Shown here one piece after another: positions 4,634 through 22,829 of a DNA stretch of 64,000 bases. The notes beneath the pieces were generated by a model. That model was not told where the DNA came from and ran no database searches. It saw only the letters and a program-made list of their open reading frames with translations. The position numbers were made by a program, and so were the translations under genes. Position 1 is the first letter of the stretch; every line of letters starts with the position of its first letter. This DNA comes from Pseudomonadota bacterium. Its GTDB lineage: Bacteria > Pseudomonadota > Gammaproteobacteria > Burkholderiales > Casimicrobiaceae. The stretch spans positions 49,596 through 113,595 of the forward strand of contig JAFEDD010000023.1 in the NCBI GenBank assembly GCA_018241765.1, given 5' to 3'.

Positions 4634-5644
4634 TTGCTCCGATTCGTCCTGACCCGCCTCGGCCTGCTCGTGCCCACGTTCATCGGCATGACGTTGGTGG
4701 CGTTCTTCCTGATTCGTCTGGTGCCGGGTGACCCCATCGAGACCCTGGCGGGGGAGCGCGGCATCGATGCCGCACGCCACGCCGCACTACTGAAGGAGCA
4801 CGGGCTCGACCGGCCGCTCGCGGTGCAGTACACGCTCTACATCGGGCGCGTGCTGCATGGGGATCTCGGGAAGTCCATGATCACGCAGGCGCCCGTGCTG
4901 AGCGAATTCAAGTCTTTGTTCCCGGCCACCATCGAGCTCGCGCTGTGCGCGATCCTGTTCGCGCTGCTGCTGGGTATCCCGGCCGGGATCATCGCGGCGG
5001 TGAAGCGAAATTCGATCTTCGACCATGGCGTGATGGGCGTATCCCTCACCGGCTATTCGATGCCCATCTTCTGGTGGGGACTGTTGCTGATCCTGCTCTT
5101 TTCCGTGAAGCTCGATCTGACACCGGTGTCCGGCCGACTCGACGTGAAGTACTTCGTCGAGCCCGTCAGCGGCTTCTTGCTCATCGATTCGATCATGGCG
5201 GGCGACAAGGACGCATTCCGCTCTGCGCTGAGCCATCTGATCCTCCCCGCCATCGTCCTCGGGACGGTGCCGCTTGCCGTCATCGCCCGCATGACGCGCT
5301 CGGCGATGCTCGAAGTCCTTGGTGAGGACTACATCCGCACGGCACGCGCGAAGGGCTTGTCGCAATTTCGCATCGTTTCACTGCACGCGTTGCGCAACGC
5401 GCTGATCCCGGTCGTCACCGTCATCGGCTTGCAGGTGGGCGTGCTGTTCACCGGTGCGATCCTGACCGAGACGATCTTCTCCTGGCCTGGCGTCGGAAAA
5501 TGGCTGATCGAGGCGATTTCGCGCCGCGACTACCCGGTGTTGCAGGGAGGCGTGCTCCTGATCGGCACCATGGTGATGGTCGTCAACCTGCTGGTTGATC
5601 TCACCTACGGCATCATCAACCCGCGCATCCGGCACCAACGATGA
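4634..5644 (+). CDS. dppB: Dipeptide ABC transporter permease
   Basis: TTG start; LVPGDP, GDLGKS, EAA loop EDYIRTARAKGL, DLTYGIINPRI. Confidence 0.92.
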   Translation: MLRFVLTRLGLLVPTFIGMTLVAFFLIRLVPGDPIETLAGERGIDAARHAALLKEHGLDRPLAVQYTLYIGRVLHGDLGKSMITQAPVLSEFKSLFPATIELALCAILFALLLGIPAGIIAAVKRNSIFDHGVMGVSLTGYSMPIFWWGLLLILLFSVKLDLTPVSGRLDVKYFVEPVSGFLLIDSIMAGDKDAFRSALSHLILPAIVLGTVPLAVIARMTRSAMLEVLGEDYIRTARAKGLSQFRIVSLHALRNALIPVVTVIGLQVGVLFTGAILTETIFSWPGVGKWLIEAISRRDYPVLQGGVLLIGTMVMVVNLLVDLTYGIINPRIRHQR

Positions 5645-6546
5645 GCGCGGCAACCGGCACAGCCATGCAGGGTGATTCGGGCGCGCCCGTCGGGCGCTTT
5701 CGAGAATTCTGGGGCTACTTCAGCGCCAATGCCGGCGCGGTTCTGGGTTTGGTCATCGTCATCACGGTCTTGCTGATGGCTCTGTTGGCGCCAGTCATCG
5801 CACCGTATCCGCCTGATCTCACCAACAACGCGGTCTTTCTCAAACCGCCGTTCTGGCAGGATGGCGGGTCGCTCGCCTATCCGCTCGGGACCGATGCGAT
5901 CGGTCGCGACATCCTGTCGCGACTCATTCACGGCGCCCGCCTGTCGCTCGTCATCGGCATCGCCGTCGTCGCCATCTCCGTGCTGATCGGCACCGTTCTC
6001 GGGCTGACCGCCGGCTACTTCCGCGGCTTCTACGAAACCGCCGTCATGCGCCTGATGGACATCGTACTCACGTTGCCGAGCCTGCTGCTCGCCATCGTGA
6101 TCGTCGCGATTCTCGGCCCCGGCTTGATGAACGCCATGCTGGCGGTTGCGGTGGTCGTGCTGCCGCACTATGTACGCATTGCACGCGCGGCGGTCATCTC
6201 GGAGTCGTCGCGCGACTACGTCACGGCGGCTCGCATGAACGGGGCCGGGCATCTGCGCCTGATGTTCAGTGAAATTCTGCCGAACTGTGCCGCGCCGCTG
6301 ATCGTGCAGGCTTCGCTTGGCATATCGACCGCGATTCTCGATGCTGCGGCGCTCGGCTTTCTCGGGCTTGGCGCACAACCGCCAGCACCCGAATGGGGCA
6401 CGATGCTCGCCGATGCGCGTGAGTTCGTACTGCGTGCCTGGTGGGTCGTCACCTTTCCCGGACTCATGATCCTGATCACGGTGCTTGCCTTCAATCTGCT
6501 GGGTGACGGCTTGCGCGACGCGCTGGACCCGAAACTCAAACGCTGA
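5641..6546 (+). CDS. dppC: Dipeptide ABC transporter permease
   Basis: LGTDAIGRDILSRL, RDYVTAARMNG, FNLLGDGLRDALDPK; ATGA overlap with dppB. Confidence 0.92.
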   Translation: MSAATGTAMQGDSGAPVGRFREFWGYFSANAGAVLGLVIVITVLLMALLAPVIAPYPPDLTNNAVFLKPPFWQDGGSLAYPLGTDAIGRDILSRLIHGARLSLVIGIAVVAISVLIGTVLGLTAGYFRGFYETAVMRLMDIVLTLPSLLLAIVIVAILGPGLMNAMLAVAVVVLPHYVRIARAAVISESSRDYVTAARMNGAGHLRLMFSEILPNCAAPLIVQASLGISTAILDAAALGFLGLGAQPPAPEWGTMLADAREFVLRAWWVVTFPGLMILITVLAFNLLGDGLRDALDPKLKR

Positions 6547-6555
6547 CGGAGGACG

Positions 6556-7560
6556 ATGATGGCGCTGCTCGAAATCGAGAACCTATGCGTCGACTTCCCG
6601 ACGCGTGGTGGCGTGCTGCACGCGGTCGACTCGGTCAGCCTCTCGCTGGATACCGGCGACGTGCTCGGCATCGTCGGCGAATCGGGGTCCGGCAAGAGCG
6701 TCACCATGATGGCACTCATGGGGCTGGTCGCATTTCCCGGGCAGGTGCGCGCCGATCGCCTGCGTTTCGACGGACACGACCTCTTGGCGGCCACGCCTCG
6801 CGAGCGCGCGCGCTGGGTCGGCCGCGATCTGGCGATGATCTTTCAGGAACCCACGACGAGCCTCAACCCGTGCTTCACGATCGGGTTCCAACTTGCCGAG
6901 ACCCTTCGCGTGCATCTGGGACTCGATGGCCGCGATGCGCGCCGTCGTTCGATCGAATTGCTCGAGCAGGTTGGCATCCCCGCACCCGAGAGCCGCCTGA
7001 AGGCCTTTCCGCATCAACTGTCCGGCGGCATGAATCAGCGCGTGATGATTGCAATGGCCATCGCCTGCAACCCCAAACTGCTCATCGCCGACGAACCGAC
7101 GACCGCACTCGACGTCACCATTCAAGCCCAGATTCTCGATCTCCTGCGGCAGTTGCAACGGGAGCGCGGCATGGCGTTGGTGCTGATTACTCACAACATG
7201 GGCGTCGTGTCGGAAATGGCGCGCCGCATTGCCGTGATGTACGCTGGCCAAGTCGTTGAAGAGCGCGCGGCGGCGGAACTCTTCGCCACGCCGCTGCATC
7301 CCTACAGCGAAGCGCTGTTGGCGGCACTACCCGAACGCAGCGATGGCGAACGACTCGCCACGATTGGCGGCATGGTGCCAGGCCTGCACGATCGCCCTGC
7401 CGGCTGCCTGTTCCACCCACGTTGCGACTACGCGGACGCTCGTTGCCGCAGCGAACGGCCGGCGCTGCGTCCGTTGGTTGACGCGCATGTGCGCTGCCAC
7501 TATCCCATCACCGGCAATCCGAAGCGCGACGCCGCCAAGCACGAGGGAGTCAGCGCTTGA
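6556..7560 (+). CDS. dppD: Dipeptide ABC transporter ATP-binding protein
   Basis: Walker [18 protein letters not shown], Walker [14 protein letters not shown]-terminal Cys-rich oligopeptide-transporter tail. Confidence 0.92.
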
Positions 7561-12068: not shown

Positions 12069-12221
12069 ATGGACCACGACGACGAGAACGCACCCGTTCC
12101 CTTCATGCAACGGCTGCTCGACAGTCCGTTCATTCTGCTCTTTCTTGGAGTCACGATCCCGATGGTTCTCTACAACCTGTGGGGCGTCATCGAAATCCTC
12201 ATGCTGCCCACCACCAAATAG
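12069..12221 (+). CDS. Small single-TM subunit of the heme-copper oxidase (50 aa)
   Basis: RBS GAGGGAG; MDHDDENAPVPFMQRLLDSPFILLFLG...; first gene of the operon; start re-assigned from the 11931 ORF. Confidence 0.75.
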   Translation: MDHDDENAPVPFMQRLLDSPFILLFLGVTIPMVLYNLWGVIEILMLPTTK

Positions 12222-12233
12222 CGAGGTCGCACG

Positions 12234-12773
12234 ATGAGCGCCATTCTCCCCCCCGCAGAACGACTCTGGTACAAACACCCGATCGATCGCGTCGAAGGCA
12301 CCTGGATCACCATCGCGTTGGTCTGGTGTCTCATTCTGTTCTTCATGATGGTCGGCTGGCACATCTGGGGCAAACAGAACCTCTCCACCGAAACCTATCG
12401 CACGACGCCGGAACAGTTCATGACCAAGGCGGAAGCGGTTGCCGCCAAGTACACCGTGCGCACCGAGACCGAGCAAAACATCCCCGTCGTCGCGCCGCCG
12501 CCCGGCAGCGACGTCTACATGCTCGGACGTCTTTGGAACTTCTGGCCGATCCTCGAGCTGCAGAAAGACAAGACCTATCGCCTTCACCTGACGGCCATGG
12601 ACTACAACCACGGCTTCTCGTTGCAACCGGCGAACATCAACATCCAACTGGTGCCCGGCTTCGAGCACGTGGTGACGGTTACACCCAATCAGGCAGGCAC
12701 GTACTCGGTGGTCTGTAACGAATTCTGCGGCATCGGTCATCACCAGATGGTCGGGCGCATCTACGTCAAGTGA
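12234..12773 (+). CDS. Heme-copper oxidase subunit II (CuA), B-family-like, no heme c
   Basis: One TM helix; HGFS and CNEFCGIGHHQM CuA ligands. Confidence 0.92.
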   Translation: MSAILPPAERLWYKHPIDRVEGTWITIALVWCLILFFMMVGWHIWGKQNLSTETYRTTPEQFMTKAEAVAAKYTVRTETEQNIPVVAPPPGSDVYMLGRLWNFWPILELQKDKTYRLHLTAMDYNHGFSLQPANINIQLVPGFEHVVTVTPNQAGTYSVVCNEFCGIGHHQMVGRIYVK

Positions 12774-12783
12774 GGAAGCGGTC

Positions 12784-14481
12784 ATGAGCGCCACCACAAC
12801 CTACCGTACCTGCCCGCGCTCCGGGCTTCAGTTCGAAAATCAGGCCGAGAAGCTGATCAAGGCCAATGCCGTCATGGCCGTGCTCTGGCTCGCATTCGGC
12901 GGCATTCTTGCCATCGGCGTCGTGCTGACGCGTTGGCCCGCCATTCACTGGCTGCCGGCCGATACGTTCTACATGGTTCTGACCGCCCACGGCCTCGACA
13001 TGCTGATCTTCTGGATCATCTTCTTCGAGATCGCCGTGCTCTACTTCGCCTCCTCGACGCTGCTGCGATGCCGAATCGCGACGCCCAAGGTCGCGTGGCT
13101 CGCCTTTGGCCTGATGGTCATCGGCTCGATCATGAACAACGTCGCCGTCTTCCGCGGCGCGTCCAGCGTCATGATGACGTCGTACGTGCCGATGATGGCC
13201 GAACCCAGCTTCTACCTCGGCATCATCCTGTTCGCCGTGGGCGCGCTGATCGGCTGTTTCGTGTTCTTCGGCACCTTGGTCGTCGCCAAGCGCGAGAAAA
13301 CCTACGAAGGCTCGGTGCCGCTGGTCACGTTCGGCGCATTGACGGCCGCCATCATCGCGGTGTTCACACTGCTGTCGGGCGCGCTGATCATCGTTCCGGC
13401 GTGGCTGATGTCGCTTGCCGTCATGAACGTCGATCCGCTCATCTACCGTACCGTCTGGTGGGCTCTGGGGCACAGTTCGCAGCAAATCAACGTCGCCACG
13501 CACGTCTCGGTGTGGTATTTGGTCGCAGCCGTCGCACTGGGCGCCAAGCCCATGAGCGAACGCGTATCGCGCGTTGCGTTCCTCCTCTACATCCTGTTCC
13601 TGCAACTCGCCAGCGCGCACCATCTGCTGGCCGACCCTGGCGTCGGCACCGCGTGGAAGGTCGTGAACACGAGCTACTTCATGTACCTCGCCGTGCTCGC
13701 ATCGATGCTGCACGGACTGACCGTTCCCGGCGCGATGGAAGTCGCGCAGCGGCAGAAGGGTTACACCAAGGGATTGTTCGAGTGGCTGCGCAAGGCACCC
13801 TGGGGCAATCCGACGTTTGCCGGCGTGTTCATTTCGATCATCGGGTTCGGCTTCCTCGGCGGCATCACCGGCGTCATGATGGGTACCGAGCAGCTCAACC
13901 TGATCATCCACAACACCATCTACGTTCCGGGGCACTTCCACGCCACCGTCGTGGTGGGCACCACGCTCACCTTCATGGCGCTGACGTTCTACCTGATCCC
14001 GGTGCTGTTCAAGCGGGAAATGATTTCGCCCAAGCTCGCGCAGTGGCAGCCCTATCTGTTTGGCTTCTCGATGTACTTCTTCTGCCTCGTCATGATGGGC
14101 GCGGGAACACTCGGCGTATCACGGCGCCATTGGGACATGGCGTTCCAGGGCAACGCACTCGCCTACGAGTGGCCGGGTGCCGCGTACCTGATGATGGCAC
14201 TGGTGGGCATCGCTGGCGTTGCGGCCATTCTCGGCGGCATCATCTTCGTCTACATCACGGTGGGCTCGCTGTTGTGGGGACGAAAGCTCGAGCCGGGCAA
14301 GAGCAGTGCGGCGTTCACCCCCGTCCCGCGTGCGGCCCCGACCACGGCGGCCCAAACGTACGGATCGATGGGGTTTGCCGCACCGGGCACGTTCGCACTG
14401 GCCATGATCTTCCTCGTGGCGTTCGTGCTCTACTACTTCATCAACTGGAAGTATCTGTCGACCCTCTGGGGCCTCAGCTGA
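12784..14481 (+). CDS. Heme-copper oxidase subunit I, eNOR-like putative nitric oxide reductase
   Basis: Six His ligands (TAHG, GHSSQQ, SAHH, GHFH); His+4 position is Gln instead of the cross-linked Tyr of O2 reductases. Family membership is secure; the NOR function is inferred. Confidence 0.8.
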   Translation: MSATTTYRTCPRSGLQFENQAEKLIKANAVMAVLWLAFGGILAIGVVLTRWPAIHWLPADTFYMVLTAHGLDMLIFWIIFFEIAVLYFASSTLLRCRIATPKVAWLAFGLMVIGSIMNNVAVFRGASSVMMTSYVPMMAEPSFYLGIILFAVGALIGCFVFFGTLVVAKREKTYEGSVPLVTFGALTAAIIAVFTLLSGALIIVPAWLMSLAVMNVDPLIYRTVWWALGHSSQQINVATHVSVWYLVAAVALGAKPMSERVSRVAFLLYILFLQLASAHHLLADPGVGTAWKVVNTSYFMYLAVLASMLHGLTVPGAMEVAQRQKGYTKGLFEWLRKAPWGNPTFAGVFISIIGFGFLGGITGVMMGTEQLNLIIHNTIYVPGHFHATVVVGTTLTFMALTFYLIPVLFKREMISPKLAQWQPYLFGFSMYFFCLVMMGAGTLGVSRRHWDMAFQGNALAYEWPGAAYLMMALVGIAGVAAILGGIIFVYITVGSLLWGRKLEPGKSSAAFTPVPRAAPTTAAQTYGSMGFAAPGTFALAMIFLVAFVLYYFINWKYLSTLWGLS

Positions 14482-14519: not shown

Positions 14520-15413
14520 GTGAGCATGTCGCTTGCGCAGGGGGGACCTGCCGCGCCCACATGGCGTACCGTGGTCGGCATCTTCAAACTGCGCATCGGC
14601 GTGCTGATCATGCTCACGGCGCTCGCCGGGGCAGCCTTCTCCACCGCACCGGCGCCGGCGGCCTGGAAGGTCGCCCTCATGGCGCTGTGCGTCCTCGCCT
14701 CCTCGGCGGCGGCGGGTGCGTTCAATCAGTTCATCGAAGCGGACAGCGACCGCCTGATGAAGCGCACCCAGGGTCGCGCCTTCGCGACCGGAACGCTGAA
14801 GGCCGGGCCGTTCTGGCTCGGCATCATTCTTGTGCTGCTGGCCGCCGCCGTCGCAGCAACAGCATGGTTCATCAACGTAACGGCGGCGGTGTTTTTGTTC
14901 CTCGGCGCATTCACCTATGCGGTCGTCTACACCGTCGTACTCAAGCGCCGAACGTGGTGGAACATCGTCTTCGGTGGCGCTGCGGGCAGTTTCGCGGTGC
15001 TGACTGGCGCCGCAGCGGCCGATCCGTCGATCGGAGCATTGCCGGCGCTCTTTGCGCTCGTCTTGTTGCTCTGGACCCCCCCGCACTTCTGGAGCCTTGC
15101 CATTGCAACGCGCGATGACTATGCCGCCGCAGGCATTCCGATGCTACCGGTCGTCGTCGGCGTCGAGCGCGCCGCCCGCGTGGTCCATGGCAACGCAATC
15201 GCCCTGGTTGCGGCCTCGCTGTTGCCAGCGCTCTTTGGCGCCGGGCCCGCCTATCTGGTGGCCGCGATCGTCGGCGGCGGTTTCTTTCTGTATCGCACCC
15301 ATGCGCTTGCACGGCACCCGGAGCGGCGAACCGCGATGGCATCGTTCTTCGCCTCGATGCTGCAACTCGCCGCCTTGATCGTCGGAATCGTCGTCGATGC
15401 TGCCCTGCACTAG
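14520..15413 (+). CDS. cyoE: Protoheme IX farnesyltransferase (heme O synthase)
   Basis: GTG start; FKLRIG, FNQFIEADSDRLMKRT, YTVVLKRRT, WTPPHFWSLA..DDYAAAGIPMLP. Confidence 0.93.
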   Translation: MSMSLAQGGPAAPTWRTVVGIFKLRIGVLIMLTALAGAAFSTAPAPAAWKVALMALCVLASSAAAGAFNQFIEADSDRLMKRTQGRAFATGTLKAGPFWLGIILVLLAAAVAATAWFINVTAAVFLFLGAFTYAVVYTVVLKRRTWWNIVFGGAAGSFAVLTGAAAADPSIGALPALFALVLLLWTPPHFWSLAIATRDDYAAAGIPMLPVVVGVERAARVVHGNAIALVAASLLPALFGAGPAYLVAAIVGGGFFLYRTHALARHPERRTAMASFFASMLQLAALIVGIVVDAALH

Positions 15414-16398
15414 CAAACGGCCCATCTCCTCGCACGAAGGTGCGCAAGCTCGACTCGCTCTGCGCAGATCGGTCGCTCCACGCGACCAAACGGACGCCAC
15501 TGCGCCATCGAAGCATCGCGCCTGCGCCCCACGTACGCTCCTTCATGAGGCGGCTCGATTCGCGGCACTCATCGTTCTCGGCCTCACGGCCGGCTTCGTC
15601 AACGCGGCCATCGGCGATCGGCTCGATGAGCGCGCGGCGATGGCGGCGAGCCAGGCCGTCATCGGCACCATTCCGCCCGACTTTACGCTGCTCGATCGCA
15701 AGAACCGCCCCGTTCGCCTGTCGAGTTACCGTGGAAAGCCGTTGTTGATCAGCTTCATCTACACCGGCTGTTTCACCATTTGCCCGACGCAGACGCGCAT
15801 GCTGCAGGAGTCGCTGCGCGGACTCGAGCGCATGGGCGGTCTTGGCGACTTCAACGTCGTCAGCATCGGGTTCAACCAGCCGTTCGATTCGCCGCAGGCG
15901 TTGCGCGCCTTCGCCGCACAGAATCGTATCGATCAGGACAACTGGGAGTTTCTGAGCCCGCACCGAAACAACGTCGACGCGCTGACCCGCGCCTACGGCT
16001 TCACGTACGTCGAGACACCGGCGGGTTTTGACCATATCGTCGGAGTGACCCTGATCGATGCCGAGGGCCGCATTCACGCCCAGATCTATGGCAAGAACTT
16101 GACGGCCGAAAAACTCGGTGTGCCGCTCCGGCGCTTGGCGCTCAACGCCCCCCCCGAAATCGGCGGCCTGTCGTTCGACCAGGTGGTCGAACGCGTGCGC
16201 ATCCTGTGCACCGTCTACGACGCCGAGACAGGCGAATACCGGTACGACTGGAAGCTCTTCTTCGAAGTGTTCAGCGGCCTTTTGTTTTTCCTGACGGTCG
16301 GTATCTACTTCTGGCGCGAGTGGCAGAGCCAGCGGCGTGCACGCGCCGAGCGATCCACCGCCGCGGCCGTCAGCGGGACGCCTGCGCCAGAAGCGTGA
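15397..16398 (+). CDS. SCO1/SenC copper chaperone with C-terminal membrane extension (start uncertain)
   Basis: FIYTGCFTICP (CxxxC), FDHIVG conserved His, thioredoxin-like fold. Confidence 0.85.
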   Translation: MLPCTSKRPISSHEGAQARLALRRSVAPRDQTDATAPSKHRACAPRTLLHEAARFAALIVLGLTAGFVNAAIGDRLDERAAMAASQAVIGTIPPDFTLLDRKNRPVRLSSYRGKPLLISFIYTGCFTICPTQTRMLQESLRGLERMGGLGDFNVVSIGFNQPFDSPQALRAFAAQNRIDQDNWEFLSPHRNNVDALTRAYGFTYVETPAGFDHIVGVTLIDAEGRIHAQIYGKNLTAEKLGVPLRRLALNAPPEIGGLSFDQVVERVRILCTVYDAETGEYRYDWKLFFEVFSGLLFFLTVGIYFWREWQSQRRARAERSTAAAVSGTPAPEA

Positions 16399-17945
16399 GC
16401 CTCGCCGCCGCGCCGAAGTTGTGGCGCCGACTCGAACAGCTGCTCGACCGCGCGTTGGGTGCTCGCGCCAACCCCATCCGTCATCTCGGGGCGCTGGCAT
16501 TTCTCGCCTTCTGGTTGCTCGCGCTCAGCGGGCTGTGGCTGTATGCCGTACTCGACACATCAGCCAGCGGTGCGTATGCGTCGATCGAAGCGCTGTCCCG
16601 CGTGCCTTGGTCCATCGGCGGAGTACTTCGCAGCATGCACCGCTACGGAGCCGACGCTTTCGTGATGTTGACTGCGCTGCATCTGCTGCGCGAGCTCCTT
16701 CACGGACGCTTCCGCCACTTCCGCCGCTTCTCCTGGCTGACTGGCAGCGCGCTGCTGCCGATCATCGCGGTCAGTGCCGTCGGTGGCTTCTGGCTCAACT
16801 GGGATCGACTCGGCCAGTTCTCGGCCACCGCCACGGCGGAGTGGCTCGACGCGCTGCCACTCCTGGGTTCGACGTTGGCGCGCAATTTCCTGACGACGGC
16901 GAACGTCAGCGACCGTCTTTTTTCGCTGTTCGTGTTCGTGCACGTCGGAATGCCTTTGCTGCTCGTGTTTGGGCTTTGGTTTCATATTCAACGCATCACG
17001 CGCGCCGAGGTCTTTCCGCCACGGCCGCTCGCCGTTGGCTTTCTTGCCACGCTGCTCGCCCTGGCGCTCGCGCTTCCGATTCAGAGCCAGGGTCCGGCGC
17101 AATTGGCCAGCATTCCGCCATCGTTGGCGATCGACTGGTTCATTCTGTTCGCTCACCCGCTGATGTACGCCACGTCGGCCGGCCTCGTGTGGGCGATCGC
17201 GATGGTTGGGTTCCTGGCGCTGTTGTTGCTGCCGTTCGTGCCCACACGCATCGCCCGGCCCACCGTCGCCGTCGTTGACCCCGACAACTGCAGCGGCTGC
17301 CAGCGCTGTTTCGTGGACTGCCCCTATGCGGCCATCACCATGGCAGCGCACCCGAGCAAGCGCGCCGGCCATCAGATCGCGGTGGTCGATGTCGATCTCT
17401 GCGCCGGATGCGGCATCTGCGTCGGCGCGTGCCCCTCCTCGACGCCTTTCCGTCACATAGAGGAGTTGGTGACCGGCATCGACATGCCGCAACAAGCGCT
17501 GACCACGTTGCGCAGCGCGTTGCGCCAGCGTCTCCAGCAGCACGCGCAATCGAGCCCGCACGACGCGGCAGACACCGGGCCCATCGTCCTCTTTCGTTGT
17601 TCACAAGGCGCCGACGCTTCCGCCGAAACCGCCGGCGACGTCATCACGCTGCCGCTGATCTGCACCGGACAACTGCCGCCCTCGTTCATCGACTACGCGC
17701 TGCGTGACGGCGCGGCCGCGGTCGTCGTGGCCACCTGTCGCCTCAGTGGCTGCACCTACCGACTTGGTGCGCAGTGGACTTCCGAGCGCCTCAGCGGCGC
17801 ACGCGAACCCCACTTGCGCGCGGCCTACCGCGACGCTCCGAACGTCATGCTCATCGAGGCCGATGCCGGCGAAAACCGCGAGATCGACATGGGTTTGACG
17901 ACGATGCGGGCTCGATTGACGCAGTTCAAAGCAACATCCGTTTGA
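16395..17945 (+). CDS. Cytochrome b N-terminal domain fused to 2x[4Fe-4S] ferredoxin and MvhD/FlpD-like domain
   Basis: GTGA overlap start; two His pairs 14 residues apart (HRY..H, FVH..H); CSGCQRCFVDCP and CAGCGICVGACP; CTGQL...ATCRLSGCTY. Confidence 0.8.
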   Translation: MSLAAAPKLWRRLEQLLDRALGARANPIRHLGALAFLAFWLLALSGLWLYAVLDTSASGAYASIEALSRVPWSIGGVLRSMHRYGADAFVMLTALHLLRELLHGRFRHFRRFSWLTGSALLPIIAVSAVGGFWLNWDRLGQFSATATAEWLDALPLLGSTLARNFLTTANVSDRLFSLFVFVHVGMPLLLVFGLWFHIQRITRAEVFPPRPLAVGFLATLLALALALPIQSQGPAQLASIPPSLAIDWFILFAHPLMYATSAGLVWAIAMVGFLALLLLPFVPTRIARPTVAVVDPDNCSGCQRCFVDCPYAAITMAAHPSKRAGHQIAVVDVDLCAGCGICVGACPSSTPFRHIEELVTGIDMPQQALTTLRSALRQRLQQHAQSSPHDAADTGPIVLFRCSQGADASAETAGDVITLPLICTGQLPPSFIDYALRDGAAAVVVATCRLSGCTYRLGAQWTSERLSGAREPHLRAAYRDAPNVMLIEADAGENREIDMGLTTMRARLTQFKATSV

Positions 17946-17963: not shown

Positions 17964-18512
17964 ATGGTTGAAGTTCCCTCGACCGCACCGCGTGCGGCAC
18001 CGGCGACTCGGCGCGGACCTGCCGCGTGGGTCGGCCAGATCATCCTCTACGGGCTGTTCGCCCTGACGATCGGTGTTTTCTCACACTGGCCGCCGTATCA
18101 CCATCTCTCCGGCGATGAGGCGCTCGTCAAGCTGAGCATCGTGCATGCGGGCAAACCGGTGAGCGACTGCCGCCAACGAACGCCGGAGGAACTGGCCAAA
18201 CTGCCGCCGAACATGCGTGCGGCAACCAATTGCCCGCGCGAACGTTCGCCGCTGGTGGTCGAACTCGACATCGACGGCAAGCCGGCCGCACGCATGAGTG
18301 CACCGCCATCCGGGCTCTCGCGTGACGGCGCCTCGGCGGTTTACCGCCGCCTGCCCGTCGCGGCGGGTGAGCGTGAGTTCGCGGTGCGCATGCGCGACAA
18401 CGCGCGCTCGGCCGGCTTCGACTACACGCTCGAACGCCGCGTCACGCTGAAGCCGGCGCAAGTGCTGGTCATCGATTTCGACCCGCACCGCGGCACGCTC
18501 ACGCTGCAATGA
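17964..18512 (+). CDS. Hypothetical membrane-anchored protein of the oxidase operon
   Basis: N-terminal TM segment, beta-rich soluble domain with two Cys; ATGA overlap with the next gene. Confidence 0.7.
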   Translation: MVEVPSTAPRAAPATRRGPAAWVGQIILYGLFALTIGVFSHWPPYHHLSGDEALVKLSIVHAGKPVSDCRQRTPEELAKLPPNMRAATNCPRERSPLVVELDIDGKPAARMSAPPSGLSRDGASAVYRRLPVAAGEREFAVRMRDNARSAGFDYTLERRVTLKPAQVLVIDFDPHRGTLTLQ

Positions 18513-19918
18513 GCCCCACCACGTCAACGCTGCGCGCCGAGGCGAGTTGGGCGCGCGCCCCGGCGAACTACGCGCTCCCCGTCGCGCGCGGACGCATCCC
18601 GCTGGCACGGGGCTGGCTTGCGCTGGCCCTTTGCGCACTGGTCGGCTCGGGGCTCTTCTCGGTGCTCCTGGTGTTCGCGCGCACACCGGGGCTTGCCAAC
18701 CATCTGCCGGGCGGAGACTTCTTTCGCACGGCACTCGTCGTCCACGTCGATCTCTCGGTGCTCGTGTGGTTCGTCGCCATCGCCGGGTTGCTCTGGAGCG
18801 TGTCGAGACGTGCGCAGGGCCGCGCGAGCCGAAGCGAATGGGCGGCGCTTGCACTTGCGGGGGCTGGCGCCACGTCGATGGCCGTCGCCCCCTTCATCGC
18901 GCCCGGCGCTCCGATCATGGCGAACTACGTGCCCGTCATCGAATCGATGCCGTTCATCGTGGGCCTGCTGGGCGTGGCCGCCGGTGGCGCCGTGTTGGTC
19001 GGACATGCGCTGTTCGCTGGTCCCGGACTGGGCGACGGTCTCGACGGTGCCGCGTCGCTTCGCTTCGGGCTTTGGTGTGCCGCAGCGTGCGGCGCCATCG
19101 CACTCTTCGCGTTCGCGCTGTCCACGGCGCTCGTCCCGCGCTCGCTGGAGAGCCGCGCGTACTGGGAAATCCTCTTCTGGGGCGGTGGCCACGCACTGCA
19201 ATTCACCTGGACGCTGCTGATGCTCGTGGGCTGGCTTTGGCTCGCGCAGGCTGCGGGAGCGCAACCGCCACTGAGCGCGCGAGTCACTCTGTTGCTGTTT
19301 GCCATCGCCTTTGTCGCCTCTTTCGTGACCCCCTGGGCCTATCTTGCCCATGAGGTCACGACGGTAGAACATCGTGAACTGCACACCTGGGGCATGCGCG
19401 TCGGCGGCGGCCTCGCCATTTTCCCGATCGCGCTGGCGGTGCTGCTCGCGCTCGTGCGCCAGCGTTCCGTCACGGCCGAAGCGCGGCCGTTGCGCGCCGC
19501 GCTCGTGACCTCGATCGGACTCTTCACGGCGGGCGGCCTGATCGGCCTCACGATCCAGGGCAGCAACGTGAAGATCCCGGCGCACTATCACGGTTGCATC
19601 GTCGGCGTCACACTCGCGTTGATGGGGCTTGTCTACCACCTGCTGCCACGGCTCGGTTATCGTGCGCCACAAGGCCGTCTCGCGGTCGCGCAGCCATGGT
19701 GTTACGGCATCGGGCAGTTGATGCACATCATCGGGCTCGTGTGGTCCGGCGGCTATGGCGTGCAACGCAAGGTGGCCGGCGCCGAGCAGGTGCTGCGCTC
19801 GCCCGGTGAAGTCTTTGGTATGGGTTTGATGGGCGCTGGCGGCGCCATCGCCATCGTCGGCGGCATGCTGTTCGCCGTCGTGGTGTGGCGCGCCATGCGC
19901 AATGGGAGTACACGATGA
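18509..19918 (+). CDS. Degenerate heme-copper oxidase subunit I-like membrane protein
   Basis: Multi-TM; retains VVHVD, FWGGGHALQF and PAHYHG but no adjacent HH pair. Confidence 0.7.
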   Translation: MSPTTSTLRAEASWARAPANYALPVARGRIPLARGWLALALCALVGSGLFSVLLVFARTPGLANHLPGGDFFRTALVVHVDLSVLVWFVAIAGLLWSVSRRAQGRASRSEWAALALAGAGATSMAVAPFIAPGAPIMANYVPVIESMPFIVGLLGVAAGGAVLVGHALFAGPGLGDGLDGAASLRFGLWCAAACGAIALFAFALSTALVPRSLESRAYWEILFWGGGHALQFTWTLLMLVGWLWLAQAAGAQPPLSARVTLLLFAIAFVASFVTPWAYLAHEVTTVEHRELHTWGMRVGGGLAIFPIALAVLLALVRQRSVTAEARPLRAALVTSIGLFTAGGLIGLTIQGSNVKIPAHYHGCIVGVTLALMGLVYHLLPRLGYRAPQGRLAVAQPWCYGIGQLMHIIGLVWSGGYGVQRKVAGAEQVLRSPGEVFGMGLMGAGGAIAIVGGMLFAVVVWRAMRNGSTR

Positions 19919-21840
19919 ACCTTAGCCCCCGACGCCTGCTGCGTTCGGCGTTCATGGCGGCCGAGGCCGTGTTCAACCGCGCGTTCGGCGACAAGCTCAA
20001 CCCGTTCTATCACCTCGGGTCGCTGACCTTCTTTCTGTTCTGGATCGTCGCCGGAACCGGCCTCTACCTGTACGCCTTCTTCGACACCAGCGTGGAAGGC
20101 GCCTATCGCTCGGTCGAGGCGCTGACCACGAAGCAATGGTTCGCCGGCGGCATCATCCGCAGCGTGCACCGCTACTCCTCGGACGCCATGGTCGTGACCA
20201 TGGTGATCCATCTGCTTCGCTACTGGGCCTACGACCGCATGCGCGGCTTCCGCTGGTTGTCGTGGATTACCGGCGTCGTGCTGGTCTGGCTCGTGTTCGC
20301 GGCTGGCGTCAACGGCTACATGCTGCCGTGGGACAAGCTGGCGCAGTTCGTCACGCAGGCGAGTTTCGAATGGATCGACTGGCTGCCGGGCTTCGGCGGC
20401 ACGCTGATCCGAAACTTCATGACCGACGCCGCCGTCAGCAACCGACTCTTCTCGCTGCTCGTGTTCATTCACATCGGCGTGCCGCTGGTTACGTTGCTCG
20501 TGATGTGGGTTCACGTGCAGCGGGTGCCGAAGGCAACGACGATTCCGCCGCGACAGGTCGCCATTGCGGTGGGCATCATGCTCGTGCTGCTCGCGCTGGT
20601 TCGTCCGGTCATGAGCCAGGGCGGCCCCGCCCAACTCGCCGTGGCGCCACAGACGCTGTCGTTCGACTGGTTCCTGCTCGCTCTCTATCCACTCGTCTAC
20701 CTGTGGCCGATCGGAGCGGTCTGGGCGTTCGTGCTCGGATTCTCCGCGCTGCTCGCGGCCGCGCCTTGGGTGCCACCGCGCCGCGGTGGTGGTGCAGGGA
20801 AGCGCGTCACCTATCACCCGGGGTCGCATACCCTGCCAGCGCGCACCGGCGAGACGCTGCTCGAAGCGGGCCTGCGTGCCGGCCTCGCGCTGCCCTACGA
20901 CTGCCGCGCCGGTGGCTGCGGTGTCTGCGTGTGCACGGTGCTCAACGGTCGCGTCGATCACGGCGCCTACCAACCCGCAGCGCTGACCGAAGCCATGCGC
21001 GCGCGCGGGCAGACGCTCATGTGCTGCGCGGTGCCGCTCGACGATGTCGAACTCGAAGTCGAGCATGTTGCGTCGCTGACCGACGCCAGTGCGCCCGTCG
21101 TTCGCTATCAGGGCCGCGTCGAGCGCATGGAGCGCTTGGCACCGGAGGTGATGCGGCTTTGGGTCACCCTGCCGGCCGGCCAGCGCATCGAGTTCGAGGC
21201 GGGTCAATACATCAACATCATTCTCGACGACGGCCCGCGCCGCGCGTTCTCGTTCGCCAACACGCCGGGCAACAACGAGCAGATCGAGCTGCACGTGCGG
21301 CGCATTCCGGGCGGGCGCTTCACCACCCACGTCTTCGACGGCATGAAACCGGGCGACACGCTCGATTTCGAAGGCCCGATCGGCCGCTTCACGCTGCGCG
21401 ACAGCAACCGCCCCATTTTGTTCATCGCCGGCGCCACGGGGTTCGCACCGATCAAGAGCATCGTCGAGGACGCCTTCCAGCGCGGCATCGATCGGCCGAT
21501 GTGGCTCTATTGGGGCGTGCGCAAGCGCGACGATCTCTACATGGCGAGCCTCGCCGAGCAGTGGGCGAGCGAGCACCCGAATTTCCTGTTCGTCCCCGTG
21601 CTTTCAGATGCCGACGACGACGTCACGTGGACTGGCCGACGCGGCCTCGTGCATGAGGCATTGCTGGCCGACCACCCGAACCTGACCGGTTTCGAGGTCT
21701 ACGCCTGTGGCTCGACGCGCATGGTGGAGGCTGCCGTGCCTGACTTCATCGCGCACGGCCTGGGTGAGCAATTCTGCTTCTCGGACGCGTTCACGCCAAG
21801 CCGCCCGACTCCGCCGTCGACGCCGGCCTCGAGCGCGTGA
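19915..21840 (+). CDS. Cytochrome b N-terminal domain fused to [2Fe-2S] ferredoxin and FAD/NAD(P) reductase domain
   Basis: ATGA overlap start after GGGAG; four heme His; CRAGGCGVC...C; RAFSFAN, AGATGFAP, YACGS. Confidence 0.85.
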   Translation: MNLSPRRLLRSAFMAAEAVFNRAFGDKLNPFYHLGSLTFFLFWIVAGTGLYLYAFFDTSVEGAYRSVEALTTKQWFAGGIIRSVHRYSSDAMVVTMVIHLLRYWAYDRMRGFRWLSWITGVVLVWLVFAAGVNGYMLPWDKLAQFVTQASFEWIDWLPGFGGTLIRNFMTDAAVSNRLFSLLVFIHIGVPLVTLLVMWVHVQRVPKATTIPPRQVAIAVGIMLVLLALVRPVMSQGGPAQLAVAPQTLSFDWFLLALYPLVYLWPIGAVWAFVLGFSALLAAAPWVPPRRGGGAGKRVTYHPGSHTLPARTGETLLEAGLRAGLALPYDCRAGGCGVCVCTVLNGRVDHGAYQPAALTEAMRARGQTLMCCAVPLDDVELEVEHVASLTDASAPVVRYQGRVERMERLAPEVMRLWVTLPAGQRIEFEAGQYINIILDDGPRRAFSFANTPGNNEQIELHVRRIPGGRFTTHVFDGMKPGDTLDFEGPIGRFTLRDSNRPILFIAGATGFAPIKSIVEDAFQRGIDRPMWLYWGVRKRDDLYMASLAEQWASEHPNFLFVPVLSDADDDVTWTGRRGLVHEALLADHPNLTGFEVYACGSTRMVEAAVPDFIAHGLGEQFCFSDAFTPSRPTPPSTPASSA

Positions 21841-22829
21841 CGCCAACTGGCGGCACGCGCGGACCCTACCCGCCCAACGTGGACCCCGCGCGCCTCCGGC
21901 TGCTGCGCCGCTGCGCCATGCTGGGTGCGCTGCTGGTCGCCGCGGTCATCGGTCTCAGTGCCTTCATGCGACTGTCGGCCAGCGGACTCGACTGTCCGAC
22001 ATGGCCGAGCTGTTACGGTGAAGCGCTGCAACGAGCGCAGGCCGGCATGGCACCCGCGACGACGCCGAGCGAGGGTGTCGCGCTGGCTCGCATGGCGCAC
22101 CGCCTGCTGGCGATGGCCTTGCTGCCGCTCGCTCTGCTGCTCGCCTTCGCCGGTTTGACCGTACGCCCGCAGCCGTGGCGAGGGCGCTGGCACACGCTTG
22201 CCGCGTTGGCGCTCATCGTGTTCCTCGCCGCACTCGGGCGGGCAACGGCGGATGCGCGACTGCCGATCGTCACCATCGGAAATCTGCTCGGTGGCTTCGT
22301 GCTGTTCGCGCTGTTTTGGCGCATGGCCGCGCTCGCCACGACGACGCAACCGCCCGTGCTGCGCTGGCGGATGTGGCCGCTCCTCGCACTGCTCGCGCTC
22401 GTCATCGAGATCACGCTGGGCGCCATGGTGAGTGGCGGCTACGCGGCGCTCAGTTGCCTGTCGCTGACCGACTGCGCCAACGCGTGGTCGCAGCCCCTGG
22501 CCACGCTCGATCCGTGGCGCGAGCCGCGCTTCACGACGCTCGCCACACCCATCCACGCCGAAGGCGCGCTCTCGCATGTCCTGCATCGCTACGCGGCGCT
22601 CATCTGCACGGTGCTGCTGTGCGCCGCGGCGCTGTCGCTGCGACGTGACGGGAGAACGCGAGACGCGCTCGCCATCGTCGCGCTGACCGCGCTCGTCGTG
22701 GCACTCGGCATCGCGAGCGTCGCCGCCGGCATGCCGCTCTTCGTCGTGCTGCTGCACAACCTCGCAAGCGCCCTGCTGCTCGCCGTGACGGTCAACGCCG
22801 TGCGCGGCGCCGACGCCATCAGCCGCTGA
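21837..22829 (+). CDS. COX15/CtaA-family heme A synthase-like protein (variant)
   Basis: GLDCPTWPSCYG, AHR, LHRY, LHN motifs; helix-4 His position reads N (IGNLLGG). Confidence 0.8.
   Translation: MTPTGGTRGPYPPNVDPARLRLLRRCAMLGALLVAAVIGLSAFMRLSASGLDCPTWPSCYGEALQRAQAGMAPATTPSEGVALARMAHRLLAMALLPLALLLAFAGLTVRPQPWRGRWHTLAALALIVFLAALGRATADARLPIVTIGNLLGGFVLFALFWRMAALATTTQPPVLRWRMWPLLALLALVIEITLGAMVSGGYAALSCLSLTDCANAWSQPLATLDPWREPRFTTLATPIHAEGALSHVLHRYAALICTVLLCAAALSLRRDGRTRDALAIVALTALVVALGIASVAAGMPLFVVLLHNLASALLLAVTVNAVRGADAISR

Follow-up and report, generated by a model that had tools for sequence, protein, structure and literature searches.

Which enzyme does a protein built partly from the components of Hdr systems serve, when it is anchored in the membrane by a cytochrome b? 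This question is raised by a gene in a 64,000-nucleotide stretch of DNA from a Casimicrobiaceae bacterium (Gammaproteobacteria, Burkholderiales; assembly GCA_018241765.1, contig JAFEDD010000023.1, positions 49,596 to 113,595 of the forward strand), the whole of which we refer to as the window. Its product, here called cbFF, joins a dihaem cytochrome b to a two-cluster ferredoxin and an MvhD/FlpD-like domain. The original prediction, made from the sequence alone, had seen this domain as a repurposed docking relay, possibly to the flavin domain of a paralogous cytochrome b-ferredoxin-FNR fusion at 19915 (cbFNR). Here we describe the linkage of cbFF to the operon of a haem-copper enzyme, probably an eNOR-type nitric oxide (NO) reductase, and propose that cbFF is probably a cytochrome b-[Fe-S] accessory subunit of this operon, one that would connect the cytoplasm with the enzyme or with the quinone pool. 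Its HdrA-ferredoxin and MvhD block is best seen as serving eNOR rather than Hdr.

Domains of cbFF and their conservation

The start codon of cbFF is a GTG at 16395, which shares the sequence GTGA with the stop of SCO1, the preceding gene. The protein database contains an identical 516-amino-acid product (P0003; 99% identity in the search). More than 2800 proteins were returned for cbFF by a word-indexed protein database search, the best 120 homologues being full-length, 57-68% identical and of the same architecture. They come mostly from metagenome-assembled genomes (MAGs) of Burkholderiales (Rubrivivax, Rhodoferax, Rhizobacter, Ideonella), and from Steroidobacteraceae and other Gammaproteobacteria, and the names assigned to them automatically (NCBI, JGI) are 'cytochrome b6' or 'hydrogenase iron-sulfur subunit'. 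When 50%-identity representatives were searched exhaustively with HMMER, 3541 matched at E <= 1e-3, 435 of them at E <= 1e-30. Conservation was assessed in 104 representatives of at least 480 amino acids, with pairwise identity below 50%.

The three-domain architecture read from the translation in the original prediction (Cytochrome_B, Fer4 and FlpD) was borne out by Pfam and by the motifs themselves, as all those listed earlier are present in the protein: four haem histidines in two pairs 14 residues apart (H82/H96 and H183/H197), two CxxCxxCxxxCP clusters (C299...C309-P and C336...C346-P) and the C-terminal C...CTGQL...CRLSGCTY pattern (C402, C423 in ICTGQL, and C448 and C453 in TCRLSGCTY).

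The C-terminal half of the protein, or head, was matched to HdrA and MvhD by several searches. Pfam Fer4 families (PF12838/PF00037) scored above threshold on residues 291-349, which hold the motifs C299-x2-C302-x2-C305-x3-C309-P and C336-x2-C339-x2-C342-x3-C346-P. The eight cysteines are kept in about 95% of the representatives, and the best PDB sequence match of this ferredoxin is the C-terminal ferredoxin domain of HdrA (8rvu_a, 6e-10). Pfam FlpD (PF02662), whose cut-off is 22.3 bits, scored 36.7 bits on residues 397-505 and 39.9 bits when the genome was searched, and a phmmer search of the PDB with this last domain found MvhD (9sw2_D, 5.9e-5; 5odc_D, 7e-4). In NCBIfam, residues 289-511 align as one block to residues 569-771 of HdrA2 (NF040770), that is, to its fused ferredoxin and MvhD C-terminus. 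An AlphaFold2 model of residues 286-516, made with 36 diverse homologues, reached a mean predicted local distance difference test (pLDDT) of 92.3; Foldseek ranked four MvhD/ElpC chains first when it was compared with the PDB (5odc_D, 8rvu_F, 5odh_D and 7bkb_F; probability 1.00, TM-score by target 0.63-0.71), followed by HdrA ferredoxin domains. The C-terminal domain is thus a genuine MvhD/FlpD relative both by sequence and by predicted fold, as had been claimed at the outset.

Within this domain, C402, C423 and C448 are kept in 96 of the 104 representatives and C453 in 78; a distant sub-branch of the family has another residue in place of C453, or has the cysteine displaced by a few positions. 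In close relatives of cbFF all four are conserved. Pairwise alignment places them at MvhD C13, C42, C67 and C72, and MvhD C12 and C16 have no counterpart cysteine in cbFF. In recent structural work (PMC13580544), the residues of MvhD that face HdrA were found to include Cys16, His68 and Asp71, positions which in cbFF are occupied by Gly, Arg and Gly. We also considered a loss of all HdrA-facing residues across the family, a view softened by the finding of an Asp at the MvhD-Asp71 position in 58 of the 104 members. The head would carry two [4Fe-4S] clusters, along with what is probably a single [2Fe-2S] cluster. The most fitting view of the MvhD-like domain is that of a portable connector, acquired as a block with an HdrA-type ferredoxin domain.

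In the membrane part, Pfam Cytochrome_B (PF00033) matched residues 29-199 (E 1.2e-18, 68 bits against a cut-off of 27.2). Helices A-D carry the histidine ligands of two bis-His haem sites, the pairs involving helices B and D, and all four histidines are invariant (104/104). The closest PDB relatives are cytochrome b6 (6rqf_I, 2.4e-17) and then bc1 cytochrome b, the histidine spacing in helix D being of the bc1 type, since alignment to b6 needs a one-residue gap; in NCBIfam, the best match was ExtP (NF040969), with 101.9 bits, below its cut-off of 290. Run against all open reading frames of the source genome, the family's membrane-domain profile matched only the two operon paralogues and the canonical bc1 cytochrome b, encoded on another contig. 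A second match of the profile to this bc1 protein was collinear but weak (5.2 bits, conditional E 0.0016), and aligned 'pAD...lP...lDWFyl' of the family to the bc1 ef-loop 'PADPLKTPAHIAPVWYF' ('PVWYF'). The DWF motif in question lies between helices E and F of cbFF, and its aspartate, D247, is kept in 101 of the 104 representatives. Weak as this evidence is, it suggests that a Qo-site ef-loop is retained in cbFF, with an Asp at the Glu position of PEWY. A Pfam search with helices E-F only (residues 200-292, E <= 10) matched no family, and neither a Rieske nor a cytochrome c1 gene was found in the cluster, here or in the related loci inspected. The chain following helix F is placed in the cytoplasm because of the bc1 homology, and the lack of an export signal on the Fe-S domains fits this placement.

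Linkage of cbFF to a probable eNOR operon

In a single sample of 301 Burkholderiales species, in which 28 genera were involved and relatives are not independent, every one of the 36 genomes with the cbFF head also carries an eNOR-type subunit I, and the head is absent from all 261 genomes that lack this subunit (0/261). The surrounding genes were then followed in the 80 closest proteobacterial loci, taken from a scan of one genome per species, in which the window proteins were placed by tblastn; three of these loci belong to isolates, namely Piscinibacter caeni MQ-18, Simplicispira lacusdiani CPCC 100842 and Ramlibacter cellulosilyticus USB13, and others to several Candidatus (Ca.) Accumulibacter. 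The scan's 592 confirmed matches do not equal the number of species with cbFF, because the search pattern lay in the cytochrome b part and is common to the paralogue. Matches were obtained for a neighbouring 182-amino-acid protein in 78 of the 80 loci, for SCO1 in 73, for subunit I in 71, for the cytochrome b-FNR head in 69 (within 10 kb) and for a COX1 paralogue in 68, in some of them on the opposite strand. Among the 11 loci without a cytochrome b-FNR head, 10 are on contigs that end early on that side, and one (L049) has full flanks. The gene set is also found together in Steroidobacteraceae and other Gammaproteobacteria MAGs; gene order differs among clades, and the genes remain clustered.

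Natural gene fusions link some of these neighbours to cbFF. Many of its relatives are about 690-720 amino acids long, the additional C-terminus being a homologue of the 182-amino-acid protein, which is 44% identical (1e-45) to the C-terminal 190 residues of the 692-residue P0130. In P0187, a metagenomic protein of 761 amino acids, a cbFF-type cytochrome b module is fused to the COX1 paralogue, and the COX1-like protein of the window is, over its full length, 55% identical to the C-terminal part of P0187. These fusions argue that the cytochrome b module, the 182-amino-acid protein and the COX1 paralogue belong to one membrane assembly, a physical complex that we infer, and all fusions found are compatible with the topology proposed for cbFF. 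The distant fused cbFF-182 forms adjoin the genes of subunits II and I, CtaB and SCO1, and neither a cytochrome b-FNR gene nor a COX1 paralogue was found beside them within the flanks examined.

Further variants were seen along the way. P0173 (827 amino acids) joins the same cytochrome b module to flavodoxin, FAD_binding_1 and NAD_binding_1 domains, that is, to a diflavin reductase resembling cytochrome P450 reductase, and this third head variant suggests that the module serves generally to anchor reductase heads that lie in the cytoplasm. Open frames of 638-887 amino acids run across the 182-amino-acid gene in L043, L068 and L080, Ramlibacter cellulosilyticus included, and may be Burkholderiales cbFF fusions; in L046, the cytochrome b-FNR gene has an open frame of 863 amino acids. 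In a distant lineage, beside the fused cbFF homologue P0138 (L106, 13484-17428, minus strand), eNOR genes and a fused cbFF-182 are interleaved with those of NirS (cytochrome cd1), a cupredoxin and a large multihaem cytochrome c, in a locus that also holds CtaA and a Crp-type regulator and that is, by its predicted gene content, a compact nitrite-to-N2O island.

The haem-copper enzyme itself was classified by its subunit I, which retains all six canonical histidines and has a Gln (GHSSQQ) at the position of the cross-linked Tyr; alignment to the ba3-type 7deg_A puts this Gln at the Tyr of GHPVVY. Absence of the Tyr from a haem-copper enzyme is the criterion by which putative NO reductases have been called (PMC11214002), and sNOR and bNOR have an Asn at this position (PMC3475470). 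Ca. Accumulibacter, in which eNOR has been reported, has loci whose subunit I is 68-72% identical to that of the window and adjoins cbFF. We therefore read the window enzyme as a probable eNOR-type NO reductase, because of the Gln in place of Asn, the composition of the operon and the Accumulibacter orthologues. The norSY-senC-orf1 (sNOR) cluster of ammonia oxidisers was also considered; sNOR and bNOR combine the Asn with a small orf1 product of six transmembrane helices, and this assignment was dropped because of the Gln in subunit I and the match of the operon to the description of eNOR.

The genes of the window cluster are listed in Table 1. Stop and start codons overlap at SCO1/cbFF, at the 182-amino-acid protein/COX1-like protein, at COX1-like protein/cbFNR and at cbFNR/CtaA, and the genes therefore form one operon. 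The cytochrome b parts of cbFNR and cbFF are 48% identical over 274 amino acids. The 182-amino-acid protein was modelled as a transmembrane helix with a beta-sandwich (pLDDT 95), and its Cys pair is invariant; Pfam and NCBIfam searches assigned it to no family, and Foldseek of the model against the PDB returned generic beta-sandwich matches, none at E <= 0.001. In the intergenic region upstream of the operon lies TTGAACCACATCAA; besides it, just one other site in the window has no more than one mismatch to TTGAT-N4-ATCAA. Genes of Crp/FNR-family regulators adjoin the cluster in the related loci L005 and L106. Taken together, the candidate box and the nearby regulators hint at control of the operon by low oxygen or NO.

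Table 1. Features of the cbFF operon, with positions counted from the first letter of the window
Feature	Position	Strand	Basis
Candidate FNR/CRP-type box TTGAACCACATCAA	11881..11894		one mismatch to TTGAT-N4-ATCAA; ~175 bp upstream of the first operon reading frame
50-amino-acid membrane peptide, first in operon	12069..12221	+	open reading frame; tblastn matches at the same position in 56/80 related loci
Subunit II with CuA ligands (H...CNEFCGIGHHQM)	12234..12773	+	translation; weak COX2 Pfam match on orthologues
Haem-copper subunit I, B-family lineage, probable eNOR	12784..14481	+	PF00115 3e-62; translation; alignment to 7deg_A
Haem O synthase CtaB	14520..15413	+	TIGR01473, 245.6 bits (cut-off 210.3)
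SCO1/SenC copper chaperone, stop overlapping cbFF start	15397..16398	+	PF02630 2.7e-14
cbFF: cytochrome b - 2x[4Fe-4S] ferredoxin - MvhD/FlpD fusion, 516 amino acids	16395..17945	+	open reading frame, translation, Pfam, homologues
cbFF membrane domain, bc1/b6-type dihaem cytochrome b	16479..17249	+	PF00033, PDB sequence match, conservation
cbFF 2x[4Fe-4S] ferredoxin domain, predicted cytoplasmic, residues 291-349	17265..17441	+	Fer4 families, PDB sequence matches, Cys conservation
cbFF MvhD/FlpD-like domain, residues 397-505, putative [2Fe-2S] site (C402, C423, C448, C453)	17583..17909	+	PF02662, phmmer, model
182-amino-acid single-pass membrane protein, predicted periplasmic beta-sandwich, Cys pair C69/C90	17964..18512	+	homology to P0130; model
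COX1-like protein, divergent, 469 amino acids, without the adjacent HH pair of CuB/FeB ligands	18509..19918	+	PF00115 E 6.5e-16; translation
cbFNR: cytochrome b - plant-type [2Fe-2S] ferredoxin - FNR-type FAD/NAD(P)H reductase, 641 amino acids	19915..21840	+	Pfam; BenC-like reductase part
COX15/CtaA haem A synthase homologue, start overlapping cbFNR stop	21837..22829	+	PF02628 2.5e-33

Proposed electron flow through cbFF and the readings of its role

As an accessory subunit of the eNOR-type operon, cbFF would use its six membrane helices to form a bc1/b6-type dihaem cytochrome b with a Qo-like ef-loop and with no Rieske partner in the cluster. The resulting transmembrane wire would start at a quinol/quinone site or at the periplasmic face near the CuA subunit; electrons would pass haems bL and bH and then the two [4Fe-4S] clusters of the cytoplasmic head, and the MvhD-like cluster would be the outermost entry or exit point. 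The protein would work in one membrane assembly with the 182-amino-acid protein; in Burkholderiales and Rhodocyclales, the NAD(P)H-linked paralogue and the COX1 paralogue that lacks CuB would belong to this assembly as well. As to direction, electrons may run from NAD(P)H (via the paralogue) or from ferredoxin to the quinone pool or to eNOR, or else from quinol to the cytoplasm, driven by NO reduction; the wire may also supply reducing power for haem A or CuA maturation.

Several points weigh against the role proposed here. Four of the 40 genomes with an eNOR-type subunit I show no cbFF head at E <= 1e-20, and the purified eNOR of Rhodothermus marinus reduces NO with artificial donors (PMC11214002), so that catalysis is not strictly dependent on cbFF. 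The assignment of subunit I to eNOR is itself indirect, being drawn from the Tyr-to-Gln replacement, the operon composition and the Accumulibacter orthologues. The ef-loop (Qo) homology is weak, at the 5.2 bits and conditional E of 0.0016 given above, and the Pfam Cytochrom_B_C model gave no match to this region of cbFF. Since C453 is replaced in about a quarter of the distant members, the [2Fe-2S] site may not be universal. Finally, a literature search found no biochemical study of any member of the cbFF family.

Of the other readings, docking on the paralogue, reverse flow or bifurcation, and maturation overlap the accessory-subunit reading as refinements of it. In the docking proposal, the MvhD-like domain would dock on the flavin domain of cbFNR, the cytochrome b modules of the two proteins would form a bc1-like heterodimer, and electrons from NAD(P)H would enter cbFF via the FAD/[2Fe-2S] head of its paralogue. 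The 48% identity of the two modules speaks for this arrangement, as does the dimeric nature of cytochrome b in bc complexes, and so does the presence of the paralogue within 10 kb in 69 of the 80 loci, with one locus of adequate flanks lacking it. Moreover, the MvhD cluster passes electrons towards a flavin in Mvh-Hdr (PMC12350162, PMC13580544). Against it, distant fused members stand beside eNOR genes with no cytochrome b-FNR gene in the flanks examined, and the head must therefore work without cbFNR there; in addition, the flavin domain of cbFNR is FNR-type and unrelated to HdrA, and the HdrA-facing Cys16, His68 and Asp71 of MvhD are Gly, Arg and Gly in cbFF. A complex prediction for the Fer4-FlpD head and the Fer2-FNR head of cbFNR (residues 295-640) gave a score of 0.01 and a mark of 0.32, which speaks neither for nor against binding. 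We consider this proposal unlikely, and the original prediction unsupported as a general answer: the constant genomic partner of cbFF is the eNOR-type oxidase cluster (36/36 in the co-occurrence sample) and not the paralogue. Since cbFNR is a near-constant neighbour in these 80 loci, some interplay of cbFF and cbFNR is plausible in the closest proteobacterial clade, as a clade-specific addition. Somewhat less likely again is the reading put forward for Ferrigenium, of reverse electron flow or of bifurcation of the Qo type. Quinol would be oxidised at the Qo-like site, one electron going to the high-potential eNOR and the other via the b haems to the cytoplasmic Fe-S/FAD modules, NO reduction thereby driving the reduction of NAD(P)+ or ferredoxin. 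This hypothesis has been stated in a preprint (bioRxiv 10.64898/2026.01.22.701106). The conserved ef-loop Asp, the lack of a Rieske gene in a cluster with CuA on the periplasmic side, and the fact that MvhD-type domains are otherwise known from bifurcating complexes are in its favour, and the large driving force of NO reduction would make the process thermodynamically possible; yet the Qo homology is weak, and the cluster is frequent in Accumulibacter and among Comamonadaceae-like heterotrophs, for which a need for reverse flow is not obvious. In its strongest form, which we regard as quite improbable, cbFF would be a Rieske-less Qo-type bifurcating module, in which quinol, oxidised at the conserved ef-loop pocket, gives one electron to CuA/eNOR, pulled by NO reduction, and the other via bL and bH to a cytoplasmic low-potential chain ending at the MvhD-like cluster. 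NO respiration would then directly yield ferredoxin in its reduced form, or NAD(P)H by way of the FNR paralogue. If true, such a module would be a membrane counterpart of flavin-based bifurcation, made from Hdr parts.

A maturation role, which we hold to be less likely than reverse flow, would have cbFF supply cytoplasmic reductant for assembly of the oxidase cofactors and not for turnover, its targets being the O2-dependent synthesis of haem A by CtaA, or the reduced cysteines of SCO1/CuA or of the 182-amino-acid protein. The gene always adjoins SCO1 and CtaB and lies near CtaA, the cytochrome b-FNR gene is translationally coupled to CtaA in the window, eukaryotic Cox15 needs a ferredoxin and a ferredoxin reductase, and the 182-amino-acid partner has an invariant Cys pair predicted to be periplasmic. 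Canonical A- and B-family oxidases, however, mature without such proteins, and a dihaem wire with three clusters would be unusually elaborate for a chaperone; that both fusions were detected in a proteome alongside eNOR subunits points rather to structural subunits, without settling the question. The conventional alternative, that cbFF is an Hdr- or hydrogenase-linked subunit with its partners elsewhere in the genome, would account for the automatic name 'hydrogenase iron-sulfur subunit' and for the genuine FlpD homology. The original prediction had noted that the window has no HdrA or hydrogenase gene, and this holds, by profile search, for the whole source genome (3.24 Mb, 76 contigs, 90% complete): the FlpD model found cbFF as its sole match and no second FlpD, the HdrA2 model found only the cbFF head and generic dinucleotide-fold or ferredoxin stretches far below threshold, and the model of the [NiFe]-hydrogenase large subunit found no match. 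CCG domains occur in three other genes of this genome, all of ordinary sizes. By Pfam, the N-terminal part of cbFF is a cytochrome b with no FAD/NAD fold, unlike the QmoB/HdrA2-type fusions. Within the same order, QmoB/HdrA-type FlpD proteins form a separate and much lower-scoring class in a different context, with about 100 bits on the head profile, compared to about 136-294 bits for cbFF orthologues. Given also the strict linkage of cbFF to the eNOR cluster, a conventional role is largely refuted, and we regard it as highly improbable.

True HdrA/QmoB-type proteins, of about 750 amino acids and with a ferredoxin and FlpD C-terminus, do occur in other Burkholderiales species. One of them, a QmoB/HdrA-like protein of 746 amino acids with FAD fold, Fer4 and FlpD (127 bits), is encoded in L104 (G226:C1:1955500-1966500, open reading frame 4962-7202, minus strand), where it adjoins genes for HdrA-like, HdrC-like ferredoxin and CCG (HdrB-like) proteins, the conventional FlpD context, which the source genome lacks.

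Significance and comparison with known systems

Among NO reductases and sources of N2O, enzymes of the eNOR type are reported to be some of the most widespread (PMC11214002), and cbFF may bear on their electron supply in vivo. If the accessory role is true, NO reduction in many Burkholderiales, Rhodocyclales (including wastewater Accumulibacter) and iron oxidisers would be fed directly from cytoplasmic reductant or coupled to making it, and energy-yield estimates for aerobic denitrification would change. The block of HdrA ferredoxin and MvhD is moreover shown by cbFF to be a portable electron connector that occurs outside anaerobic Hdr systems, which makes the name 'hydrogenase iron-sulfur subunit' misleading.

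The closest counterparts of the head are MvhD/ElpC and the HdrA ferredoxin (5ODC, 8RVU, 7BKB; HdrA2 NF040770), which it resembles in the block alignment, the fold and the four cysteines. It differs from these systems in having no HdrA flavoprotein core, hydrogenase or HdrBC, in not keeping C12, C16, His68 and Asp71 of MvhD, and in its attachment to a cytochrome b in the membrane of a bacterium that is aerobic or denitrifying. Like cbFF, Qmo (QmoABC), HdrED and DsrMK link a membrane dihaem cytochrome b to cytoplasmic Fe-S proteins, and QmoB has a ferredoxin and an MvhD-like C-terminus without a hydrogenase, Qmo being a quinone-interacting wire. Those complexes, however, combine a NarI/HdrE-type cytochrome b with HdrA-like flavoproteins and sulfur enzymes, whereas cbFF has a cytochrome b of the bc1/b6 type and no flavin domain, and is linked to a probable haem-copper NO reductase. 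With the cytochrome b of bc1/b6f and with the Rieske-less ExtP, cbFF shares the four-helix dihaem core with its H-x13-H pairs; in contrast to bc1/b6f it has only six helices and a C-terminal Fe-S head, and its cluster encodes neither a Rieske protein nor a cytochrome c1/f. A dihaem module is also coupled to a cytoplasmic module in the anammox Rieske/cytochrome b complexes with NAD(P)H-oxidoreductase subunits and in the NADPH-flavin-dihaem reductases NOX/FRE; these are different families or separate subunits, and we know of none with an MvhD-like domain or a tie to eNOR.

Literature searches on fusions of MvhD/FlpD and cytochrome b returned only papers on archaeal Hdr or unrelated oxidases, and a paper on the 'ba3' enzyme of Accumulibacter does not mention the cytochrome b fusions. 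The family has already been noticed in the preprint on Ferrigenium straubiae, whose eNOR operon comprises eNOR II, eNOR I, haem O synthase, sco1 and two cytochrome b fusions 'with partial similarity to bc1 complex chain C'. Of the two, the first has [Fe-S] only and the second has [Fe-S], FAD and NADH modules; proteomics of a denitrifying culture that oxidised Fe(II) detected both, and a supercomplex is proposed in which the reduction of NAD+ is coupled to that of NO (bioRxiv 10.64898/2026.01.22.701106). By this description, the operon follows the same logic as that of the window. The words MvhD and FlpD are absent from the preprint, and fusions with the 182-amino-acid protein or COX1 are not described in it. 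What our analysis adds is the homology of the head block to HdrA-ferredoxin and MvhD, backed by the predicted fold, the strict co-occurrence of cbFF with an eNOR-type subunit I, the natural fusions linking the 182-amino-acid protein and the COX1 paralogue to the cbFF module, and the forms of cbFF without an FNR paralogue. The two genes that the preprint calls 'rather unusual' are near-universal in the clade examined here.

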